In this document: piece after piece, positions 2,627-20,000 of the stretch | How the letters are laid out: every line of letters starts with the position of its first letter | How positions within the stretch are numbered: position 1 is the first letter of the stretch | Assembly: GCA_013239625.1 (NCBI GenBank) | Contig: MU053881.1 | Span: forward strand, 3,719,565 to 3,739,564 | Direction of reading: 5' to 3' | Source of the DNA: Lama guanicoe | Taxonomy: Eukaryota | Length of the DNA: 20,000 nucleotides | Program-made: the position numbers and the translations under genes | The notes under the pieces: model-generated | The model's database searches: none | Told to the model about the DNA's origin: nothing | The model's input: the letters and a program-made list of their open reading frames with translations, nothing else

Positions 2627-7700
<5,074 letters not shown>

Positions 7701-9051: not shown

Positions 9052-9055
<4 letters not shown>

Positions 9056-9142
<87 letters not shown>
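9056..9142. repeat. (TA)n microsatellite, about 43 units with two interruptions
   Basis: Directly visible; interrupted by a taaa and a tg. Confidence 0.98.
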
Positions 9143-10975: not shown

Positions 10976-11060
10976 GGGACAACCTCGCTCCAGGAGGAAT
11001 GACAATTCGCCCTAATGGGACAACCTCGCTCCCAGAGGAGTGACAATTCCTCCTAATGGG
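10976..11060. repeat. Diverged tandem duplication, 2 x 41 bp
   Basis: gggacaacctcgctccaggaggaatgacaattcgccctaat (10976-11016) versus gggacaacctcgctcccagaggagtgacaattcctcctaat (11017-11057); 36/41 identical by manual count. Confidence 0.95.
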
Positions 11061-11640: not shown

Positions 11641-11980
11641 GGCCCTCCTCGAAGAAGCCCACAATAGGAACATTCTCGCAGGAGGGAGGAAGAAATGGAG
11701 GCAAATGCGGTGCCTCCCTGTGGGTGCACAGTCTCAGAGAGGAATGGTCCAGTCCAGCTCGTGGAGACTTCTAGTTGTTTATGGCCACAGCAGGTGTGAG
11801 GTTTGTGAAAGGCGAAAGAGCCTTGATTTCTGCTCCTTCTGTAGTTCAATGTTCAAATCCACCCCAGACTTATTAACCATTTGCCACCATCACTGCACTG
11901 GGGTCCTCAGTATCCTCTTTCAGAAAAGACGGTTGCTGGTGAGGACTAGGTGAGAAGCCTTATAAAAAAGCAGGTAACAT

Positions 11981-12115
11981 GGGGGAGGGTGTAGCTCAGC
12001 AGTAGAACACATGCTTAGCATGCACAAGGTCCTAGGTTCAATCCCCAGAACCTCCAATAAAAAATAAAATAAAAAATTAACTTAAAAATACATAAAGAAA
12101 CCCAATTACCTCCCC
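11981..12115 (+). mobile_element. tRNA-derived SINE, Vic-1-like (camelid)
   Basis: ggggagggtgtagctcagcagtagaacacatgcttagcatgcacaaggtcctaggttcaatccccag has Pol III A-box and B-box, followed by an A-rich tract and a cccaattacctcccc tail. Resembles the camelid SINE consensus as recalled. Confidence 0.8.
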
Positions 12116-12224
12116 TGCTCCATCAGGCACCCCACTCTGGAGTGGCAGTAATGGTTCTGCTTGTAGCTTCCTGGAGGGTTGAAACAGGATTGAGCCACTG
12201 ATTTCCTGTGGGACTCCGCAGAAT

Positions 12225-14111: not shown

Positions 14112-14369
14112 CTAGAAATGAAAACAGTGGCAGAAACTGGAAGTATTACTCACCTGCCTCCAAAGGGCACCTTTCCCAGCGACTTGGAATGAACCTTGAA
14201 TTGGGAGGGGTAACCACTGGAACTGACACTAGATTCTTGCGGAGAGAGGTCAGACTTTTAAATTGTCCCCAAAGAAAAACTGAAATCTTTCTTTGCCCCA
14301 AACCCTTAACTCGCTAGAATTTCAATTAATCTTCACCACTTCCCCACCTCCCGCCCCCCGCCATAAATA

Positions 14370-14860: not shown

Positions 14861-15609
14861 AATGGCCATCTGCTTCTCAGACTTGGAAAATCTAGATAAA
14901 TATAATTTCTCTTTCTAATTGTGCCCGTGCGAAGAGGTCATTCTCTCCCTATCCTCTGCCTACCCTCCAACCTTAGAAAATAAAAGTCACCATCATCTAA
15001 ATAGAAAAATGAATTTTAGTAGATCCACAAACTTTAAATAGTGTCAGGCCTTCCTCCATCAGGTTGCTACTCCTGTTCATTACCGTGTGTATGGGAGTTT
15101 GATAAAAGTGGAACATTTTCCCTTTTCTGTCTGTCCGAAGCACATGACTCTTTGCAGATGGATTTGCCGTTTTTGTGGGGAGGGTGGGAAATTAAAAAGC
15201 AAGGACCTGGACCTCAGCCAAGAACAAGGGTCCTGGTCCGTGCATGTCACTCATTTGCCAGGTGACTTTAAGTAGGTCCTCCCCTTCTCAGGGTTCCTGA
15301 TTCACCCCCCTGGCAAAACAAGCTTTCAGTTTTTCTTTGTGGGCAGTTTAAACGTCTGACCCCTTCTAAGCAAGAATCCAGCATCCATCCCATTGTTAAG
15401 ACTCAGAGCCTCCCCCTCCAGATTCAAGGCGCCTTTCCTGTCTCTTCTGGTTCTGTGGTTCTCTGATAAAGGGCTGAGTGGAAAACCCATCCTGCTCCTT
15501 GTCCTGTCTCCCACCAGGCTGACTGAGGGTTCCAGGAGGGGGGAGGCATAAAGTGGAAAGGTCACAGGCGGTGGGCGGGGGGAGCTAGTGGGAACCCCTG
15601 TTGTATCCT

Positions 15610-18369: not shown

Positions 18370-19029
18370 TTTTCTCAAATTCCCAGTTTACGCCTCCTCC
18401 TCTCCCCACTTTGGTAACCATAAGAATTATTTCTGTCTGTGAGTCTGTTTCTTATTCTGTAAATAAGTTCATTTGTCTCATTTTTCTAGATGTCACATAT
18501 AAATGATATCATATAGTATTTGTCTTTTTCTATCTGACTTACTTAGTATAATCGTCCGTGTGTCCATCCATGTTGCTGCAAAGGCATTATTTTTTTGGCT
18601 GAGTAATATTCCACTGTATAAATATAGCACAACTTCTTTATCCAGTCATCTGTGAATGGAAATTTAGGTTGCTTCCATGTCTTGACTACTGTAAACAGTG
18701 CTGCTGTGGACACTGGGGTGCAGATGTCTTTTCAAATTAGAGTTTTCTCTGGATATATGCCCAGGAGTGGGATTGCTGGATCTTAGGGTAACTATTTTCA
18801 GTTTTTTAAGGAACCTCCATACTGTTCTCCATAGTGGCTACACCAATTTACATTCCCACCAGCAGCGTAGGAGGGCTCCCTTTTCTCCACCCCCTCTCCA
18901 GCATTTATTATTTGTAAGCTTTTTGATGGTGGCCATTCTGACTGGTGTGACCTCCTTCTGACCTCACTGTAGTCTTGATTTGCATTTCTCTAATAATTAG
19001 CAATGTCGAGCATCTTTTCAAGAGCCTGT
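18370..19029 (-). mobile_element. LINE-1 3' fragment (3' UTR plus end of ORF2), younger subfamily
   Basis: Antisense L1 hallmarks: ttggtaaccataag, ccatccatgttgctgcaaa, gggattgctggatc, ccatactgttctccatagtggctacaccaatttacattcccaccagcag, ttgatttgcatttctctaataattag. Confidence 0.9.
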
Positions 19030-19190
19030 AAGATGTGTGTATTCTTAATCTGAACAGATATTGCCAAATTATTTTCAAAACACCCCTTTCTGGTGCACAC
19101 TTGCACTAGCAGCATTCTTTTCTCCCCCAGCTCTGCTAGAACTCGATAGCATTGCTCTGGTTTAATTTCTGCTGTTTTTTGGAGAGTTTT
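19030..19190 (-). mobile_element. Old L1M(E)-like fragment, part 2 (continuation after the nested L1)
   Basis: gatattgccaaattattttcaaaa...tgcacacttgcactagcagc continues the old L1 pattern interrupted at about 18369. Confidence 0.55.
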
Positions 19191-19717
19191 TTGAGGAGAG
19201 TAATAGAGTTCTGTACCCATTTGAGAAGCTCTCTGGGGGAGCATTCTGGAAAATAGGGAGGTGGGGGAAATGCAGGAAGCAACAGGACCATGAGGAGGCT
19301 GTTGCAGGTTGGTTGTGTGAAGAGGGGAGCCACAGTGGGAATGGGACGACGAGGAGGGAATCGAGAGGTAAGTGGTGAAGAAGCAGAGATGCTGGTTAGC
19401 ACATCCCAGGCCTAAAGTGGTACCCTGCCGGATCTCAGGTCTGACTGTGCCTAAGGAGCTGGAGTGTAGCCTGTCCCCTGCTGTTCCTCATGTTCCTAGT
19501 GGCCGGTCACCCCAAGATTCCTGTCCTCCAAGTTCAGCTTCAATAGCCTCACACGTCTGGAGTCCTGGGCCAGAGCAGCAGGCCCCTTAGAAGTACAGTC
19601 TCGCTCCATCATGCTCAGAATCTGGGTGGGTGGTGGGCAGGGTGGGGCTGGGCAAGGCGGGTGGACAGACAGACACGCTTCTGTGCAGGGCAAACCTGGG
19701 AGCCAGCCTTGCCAATT

Positions 19718-19994
19718 AAATCACTGGTGACTTCACAAAGCAGCTTGCTAATTAGCAGCGCTGTTTCCTCTAATCCTCACTGATTTGCTTTTTAACCTAT
19801 GTGGCACCTGGCGACAGGTGTGTCAGAAGCTGCAACCACAAAATTCTAAGGCTTACGTTCCTAGAAAAGTCCAAAATCACTGGTCACAAAGCAGCTTGCT
19901 AATTAGCAGCGCTGTTTCCTCTAATCCTCACTGATTTGCTTTTTAACCTATGTGGCACCTGGCGACAGGTGTGTCAGAAGCTGCAACCACAAAA
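19718..19994. repeat. Direct duplication with identical 111-bp cores (19733-19843 and 19884-19994)
   Basis: Cores are base-for-base identical at offset 151. Both are preceded by aaatcactgg (19718 and 19874), with a 5-bp indel between that flank and the core; unique 30-bp spacer at 19844-19873. Confidence 0.97.
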
Positions 19995-20000
19995 CAAAAT

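Follow-up and report, generated by a model that had tools for sequence, protein, structure and literature searches.

Upstream of the homeobox gene MSX2 in a Lama guanicoe assembly, a short segment of DNA stands twice in succession, and the question raised is whether this arrangement exists outside the assembly, how it arose, and whether it doubles an element that controls MSX2. The window (the whole 20,000-nt stretch of DNA that was analysed) contains both MSX2 coding exons and, close to its end, both copies of the segment. The feature is real in the assembly; its most probable origin is a rare, recent slippage event that duplicated a candidate regulatory module, and an assembly error is only slightly less probable. 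At present it stands as a putative two-copy variant for which the case for a regulatory role is made by motifs (Table 1).

Table 1. Positions in the window of the duplicated unit, the sites within and beside it, and the MSX2 coding exons.
Feature	Position	Strand	Basis
Copy 1 (156 nt) of the duplicated unit; a single-copy allele likely has this form	19718..19873	+	Repeat alignment; word share 0.93 vs 0.933
Copy 2, head-to-tail behind copy 1, probably continuing past the window end	19874..20000	+	Repeat alignment
Exact core, copy 1, 111 nt	19733..19843	+	Self-comparison
Exact core, copy 2, 111 nt	19884..19994	+	Self-comparison
5 nt in copy 1, absent from copy 2; two equivalent placements	19728..19733	+	Alignment
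5-nt direct repeat, copy 2 only	19995..19999	+	Alignment
Duplication junction	19871..19884	+	Second parse with CCAA is conjectural
30-nt tail of copy 1	19844..19873	+	Best other window match 10 nt
Homeodomain word TAATTG across 5' breakpoint, absent from copy 2	19713..19718	-	Motif scan
Palindromic homeodomain/POU-type site, copy 1	19746..19757	.	Motif scan
Palindromic homeodomain/POU-type site, copy 2	19897..19908	.	Motif scan
TAATCC	19771..19776 (second copy 19922-27)	+	Motif scan
Inverted E-box pair, overlapping AGGTGT and TGTCA	19805..19825 (second copy 19956-76)	.	Motif scan
AACCACA	19834..19840 (second copy 19985-91)	+	Motif scan
MSX2 coding exon 1, putative target gene	6916..7294	-	Intact frame
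MSX2 coding exon 2 with Msx homeodomain	2627..3051	-	Pfam PF00046; 1ig7 match

Both coding exons are intact and belong to a minus-strand Msx homeobox gene; the homeodomain of exon 2 has its best solved match in the Msx-1 homeodomain (1ig7; E 6e-30; 56 of 58 residues identical), and we take the encoded protein to be MSX2. Copy 1 of the unit begins 12,424 nt upstream of the ATG, in agreement with the distance of about 12.5 kb given in the first-pass annotation. Between the gene and the unit lie several other structures. An interrupted TA microsatellite of 91 nt (9052-9142) is located 1.8 kb upstream of the MSX2 start, followed by an 80% GC island 3.3-3.7 kb upstream; at the edge of this island, beside a TTAATT word, is an older 41-nt tandem duplication (10976-11057; 88% identical), in a region that we take to be probably the known BMP-responsive upstream MSX2 module. 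A tRNA-derived SINE occupies 11979-12120 (Rfam tRNA-like match at 11985-12056, below the gathering score) and presumably resembles a camelid SINE family. Two inverted repeat arms of 53 nt (14245-14297 and 15312-15364; 85% complementary; 1014 nt apart) are possibly the worn ends of an old DNA transposon. Just gene-ward of the unit, 18380-19030 and 19200-19400 have the look of, respectively, a piece of LINE-1 and what is left of an older LINE-2.

Comparison of the window with itself finds the two 111-nt cores identical at every position, with a start-to-start offset of 151 nt, as the first-pass annotation had reported. Because the next longest exact direct repeat in the window, outside the TA run, is 16 nt, a repeat of 111 nt is far beyond chance expectation. 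The same annotation had called the copies perfect and 100% identical, a description that fails outside the cores, where two 5-nt indels separate copy 1 from copy 2. At an offset of 156 nt, a further 11 nt of homology is found on the 5' side (19718-19728 = 19874-19884); close to the start of copy 2, 5 nt are missing, with the gap at 19728-32 or 19729-33 (1 nt of ambiguity), and behind the core copy 2 carries 5 extra nt that directly repeat the bases just before them. The offset-156 register is regained after 19999, visible at the window's last base only, and for this reason copy 2 probably runs past position 20000. The simplest reading looks like a 156-nt unit with a second copy directly behind it, adjacent and in the same orientation in the assembly, and cut by the window end. 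The 30 nt between core 1 and copy 2 had been regarded as part of a unique junction; they do have no clear template elsewhere in the window (a templated filler was sought, and the best match was 10 nt), but, judging from the one base at the window end, they are probably the tail of the unit and not a foreign spacer.

The single base on which the return to offset 156 rests also leaves room for the window end to have cut some other structure, either a longer minisatellite or a 151-nt insertion (30-nt filler plus 121-nt copy) with ordinary flank after 19994. We consider this very unlikely: the 30 nt would be a filler whose best match in the window is 10 nt, and Tandem Repeats Finder calls no array at the unit, of which under two full copies are visible. 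Readings of the unit as coding DNA, a structured RNA, or a hairpin were also rejected. It contains no ORF of at least 30 aa, except one that ends at 19730, there is no Rfam match over it, and its DNA folding z-score (-0.73) gives no hairpin.

The duplication event appears to be young, or else homogenised, because the 128 sites that align between the copies show not one substitution (upper 95% bound 2.3%), and the earlier description of it as very recent is supported to that extent. The ways in which the copies do differ suggest a mechanism. Three slips explain copy 2, a large one backward and two of 5 nt, the first forward and the second backward, with copy 1 as the inferred ancestral state. 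Passages of PMC2583991 describe serial replication slippage as a source of complex changes that range from 21 bp to several kb, in which forward slips delete and backward slips duplicate. We tentatively favour, at somewhat below even probability, an allele that is real yet rare or private and that likely arose in one such serial slippage event, in which a candidate regulatory module was doubled. In this scheme, the nascent strand would have slipped back by about 156 nt (159 nt if a CCAA microhomology was used); shortly after re-priming, 5 nt (possibly a further 3 nt) would have been skipped; and 111 nt would then have been copied faithfully before a 5-nt backward slip, after which synthesis would have continued. 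The outcome would be a doubling of the homeodomain/POU palindrome, the K50 word, the E-box pair, and the RUNX word, with the upstream TAATTG left single.

The small scale, the duplicating backward slip, and the further slips in both directions are like serial replication slippage/FoSTeS as set out in passages of PMC2583991; unlike in that model, the microhomology here is either weak or a matter of how the junction is parsed, and the ancestral allele is deduced. There is 1 nt of microhomology at the gap, and either none or 4 nt at the junction, which counts to some degree against slippage: directly to the left of 19718 there is no homology at the junction, whereas in a second, conjectural parse CCAA at 19712-15 equals CCAA at 19871-74, and this 4-nt microhomology is then followed by a 3-nt skip. 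In favour of a real allele, the indels are clean, the window is without any N, and hard stretches nearby (the 91-nt TA run and the 80% GC island) were assembled through without a gap.

Two coincidences stand against a real allele, and an artefact could explain both: the 5-nt indels are equal and opposite, so that they cancel in length, and the core offset of 151 nt equals a common short-read length. The differences between the copies also cluster beside the junction. A false duplication, in which two alleles or overlapping contig ends of one locus, two 5-nt indels apart, were joined in tandem, is a distinct possibility, if a somewhat doubtful one. The first-pass annotation had suspected an artefact because of 100% identity, and this reason is wrong, since two 5-nt indels separate the copies; an artefact can still arise from the joining of two alleles. 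According to passages of PMC9516828, heterotype false duplications are the commonest kind, some of them lying on one scaffold and some having been joined through erroneous gap filling. The present feature is like the heterotype and homotype false duplications treated there in having adjacent, near-identical copies and junction words that went unseen in independent runs; it is unlike them in having no gap or N between the copies, whereas the false duplications in those passages are mostly gap-separated, which is typical but not universal (PMC9516828). Moreover, the hard stretches nearby were assembled through, and two alleles that differ by two 5-nt indels with no SNP in 127 nt would be unusual.

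Public sequencing runs bear on all of these readings. The query was 19200-20000 (801 nt), sampled as 74 words; the search gives word shares without positions. It listed 24 runs, of which 18 contain the region, and the other six, with none of the words or not indexed, were left out. The 18 runs span four organism labels and six studies; 12 of them (four labels, five studies) share 0.93 of the words, none is higher, and the remaining six share 0.80-0.91. Because three runs of one sample range from 0.81 to 0.85, the lower shares point to depth rather than genotype. The junction or copy 2 is required by 46 of 690 distinct 31-mers, and an allele made up of the flank and copy 1, with no junction, predicts a share of 0.933, or 4.9 missing words vs the 5 seen. 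Other single-copy models predict 0.87-0.91, and a fully indexed carrier predicts 1.0. The probability of exactly five missing words is 0.19 under the single-copy model vs 0.13 for one private substitution elsewhere. The 151-nt insertion considered above predicts a share of 0.899 (P 0.11 for five missing words), and of the models compared, the copy-1 model comes closest to the observed share.

Since none of the 18 runs exceeds 0.93, the value predicted for the single-copy allele, the duplication appears to be uncommon among the runs searched; this argues, indirectly given that the shares come without positions, against a fixed lineage trait, and the lineage-specific change that the first-pass annotation had entertained is disfavoured as a fixed one. 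No carrier was seen among the 18 runs. We regard a duplication that is common or fixed in one camelid species or lineage, and doubles an MSX2 enhancer there, as quite unlikely, even though one private substitution in the query would also leave five of the 74 words missing, contigs can collapse or drop short repeats, and the window's own species may be under-sampled among the runs. The uniform ceiling across four labels and six studies runs counter to it, as does the lack of any substitution between the copies. If real, the duplication is also unreported in the literature searched, outside of which most subscription papers fell, and the kind of change is already known.

How far a carrier would have been seen depends on the index. 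One passage of the Logan preprint states that only isolated contigs shorter than 150 bp were discarded, and another that contigs longer than 150 bp were reported. Given that the former drops only isolated short contigs, the junction contig of a carrier should usually be indexed; if contigs shorter than 150 bp were omitted, a carrier would be predicted to share about 0.77 of the words (16.8 missing), not 0.93. The ceiling of 0.93 is equally expected whether the allele is real and rare or the assembly is in error. In favour of a false duplication, all of the words occur together in no run, and the ceiling is what a single-copy locus predicts; in addition, an allele of the copy-2 type predicts about 0.87, and one run has 0.88, which low depth explains equally well.

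The tentatively preferred slippage allele would double a set of candidate sites. Every motif named in the first-pass annotation was found in the place given for it, and those in the core recur 151 nt further on, with two amendments. TGTCA is present as located, but extended by one base it reads GTGTCA (TGACAC in reverse complement) and not the full MEIS consensus, which is TGACAG, and the MEIS assignment is a weak one; CAATTA does precede copy 1, but it straddles the 5' breakpoint and was not carried into copy 2. We take TAATCC to be a K50 homeodomain word, AACCACA to be a RUNX word, the inverted CACCTG and CAGGTG words to be an E-box pair, and the AGGTGT that overlaps this pair to be T-box-like; the pair also overlaps what we assume is a weak CTCF-like word (19798-19816, minus strand), with mismatches at strong positions. 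A 12-nt palindrome is not rare as such, with three others in the window outside the TA run. The 12-mer at 19746-19757 is the core of the Sox2 enhancer oligo ATTA-3, at which Emx2 and Brn2 bind in EMSA, according to passages of PMC3413107. Because the Sox2 enhancer site built around this 12-mer binds Brn2 and Emx2, POU factors may be added to its candidate readers. A scan of metagenome contigs with an 18-nt pattern gave nine loci, none of which matches the unit beyond 18-26 nt, a chance level.

The density of such sites was scored with consensus words, not with matrices. With a panel of 27 classes, which includes the five named in the first-pass annotation, the core has seven classes, a level reached by none of 1949 overlapping upstream windows and by 8 of 3000 shuffles; this enrichment is partly circular, as the panel includes classes picked after the fact. 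When the 5-mer is dropped, the core has 6 of 26 classes, a level reached by 1 of 176 non-overlapping windows, and four of those six classes had been picked by the first-pass annotation. For the 22 classes that it had not named, the core has two vs a mean of 1.62, and 88 of the 176 windows have at least two. The motif excess is confined to the classes chosen in the first-pass annotation.

The human counterpart of the unit was placed by distance only, with the GC island at 10.5-11 kb of the window provisionally taken as the counterpart of the proximal upstream MSX2 peak. On this basis, the human orthologue is expected about 9-12 kb beyond that peak (hg38 174,719,849-174,722,347). Passages of PMC9805427 report an in-vitro human neural-crest super-enhancer that starts at hg19 chr5:174,134,714. 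This start is some 12 kb further out than the proximal MSX2 peak and, converted with the hs1256 offset, lies at about hg38 174,707,700. VISTA hs1256 itself and the HAND1-paper enhancer were considered and set aside, as they lie at hg38 174.733-174.736 Mb and not at this position, presumably on the other side of MSX2, to judge from the position of the gene. The expected interval, placed as it is by distance only, falls inside the super-enhancer described in those passages (PMC9805427). In the human embryonic-face H3K27ac catalogue of 13,983 candidates, as excerpted from PMC10917818, no peak starts or ends in hg38 174.700-174.7198 Mb, and for mouse chr13:53.478-53.490 Mb no differential peak is found among the matches listed from the same source. 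A selection signal in dogs, located 67 kb upstream in passages of PMC6065024, was rejected as too distant. The main text of a bat limb-enhancer preprint, in the passages drawn on, has two Msx2 accelerated regions without coordinates, and none of the passages of PMC13013843, PMC6065024, and PMC3558506 places an element at this site.

We infer, from motifs, that the duplicated module could well be a candidate MSX2 enhancer of some tissue, a proposal that we hold at a little less than even confidence. The narrower proposal of the first-pass annotation, a craniofacial or osteoblast-specific enhancer, is an unlikely motif-based candidate: the motif excess is found only in the classes that were chosen there, the expected interval is without a peak in the H3K27ac catalogue of the embryonic face, and the disease-linked duplications upstream of MSX2 lie far from it.

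Small duplications of this kind have been described beside other homeobox genes. In Highland cattle, a 76-bp non-coding duplication near HMX1, found by resequencing and located in an ultra-conserved element, is perfectly associated with crop ears, according to passages of PMC3806818. The present duplication is likewise small, lies in non-coding DNA close to a homeobox gene, and comes from a domestic ungulate, and the HMX1 effect is proposed there to be a gain of regulatory dose; unlike it, the MSX2 duplication is known from the assembly alone, and the conservation and the trait link belong to HMX1 (PMC3806818). A 197-bp tandem duplication at HOXC10 underlies Crest in chicken, where passages of PMC8022956 report PCR and Sanger confirmation, presence in all 54 crested birds and in none of 433 non-crested ones, and ectopic expression. 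The MSX2 duplication is similar in size, is also tandem, adjoins a homeobox gene, and has small secondary differences between its copies; genotyping, frequency, and expression effect are those of HOXC10, in contrast to the assembly sequence that documents the feature here (PMC8022956). In humans, non-coding duplications of 0.6-1.5 Mb upstream of MSX2 are linked in passages of PMC13478909 to a cleidocranial-dysplasia-like phenotype, with a critical region at hg19 173.85-173.89 Mb. The gene is the same, and there upstream dose changes can alter skull development; unlike the present duplication, that critical region is about 250 kb beyond the start of the neural-crest super-enhancer and not at this 12-kb position (PMC13478909).

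The meaning of the feature for camelid biology follows from these comparisons at different strengths. As an artefact, the feature would amount to a minor assembly error in a developmental locus. Should the allele exist and the module act as an enhancer, a single PCR would type the allele, and a compact MSX2 control element would be defined; if the module is an MSX2 enhancer, its doubling would at most modestly shift MSX2 dose in one tissue. As described in parts of the respective sources, small enhancer duplications beside homeobox genes cause visible traits in livestock (PMC3806818; PMC8022956), and upstream MSX2 duplications alter skull closure in people (PMC13478909). There is only a slight prospect that an allele segregating in South American camelids doubles an undescribed neural-crest or ectodermal MSX2 enhancer and thereby shifts skull, tooth, limb, or fleece form. 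Such a segregating trait allele, if true, would be for MSX2 what the crop-ear duplication is for HMX1 and the crest duplication for HOXC10, and it would pinpoint a 156-nt MSX2 enhancer.
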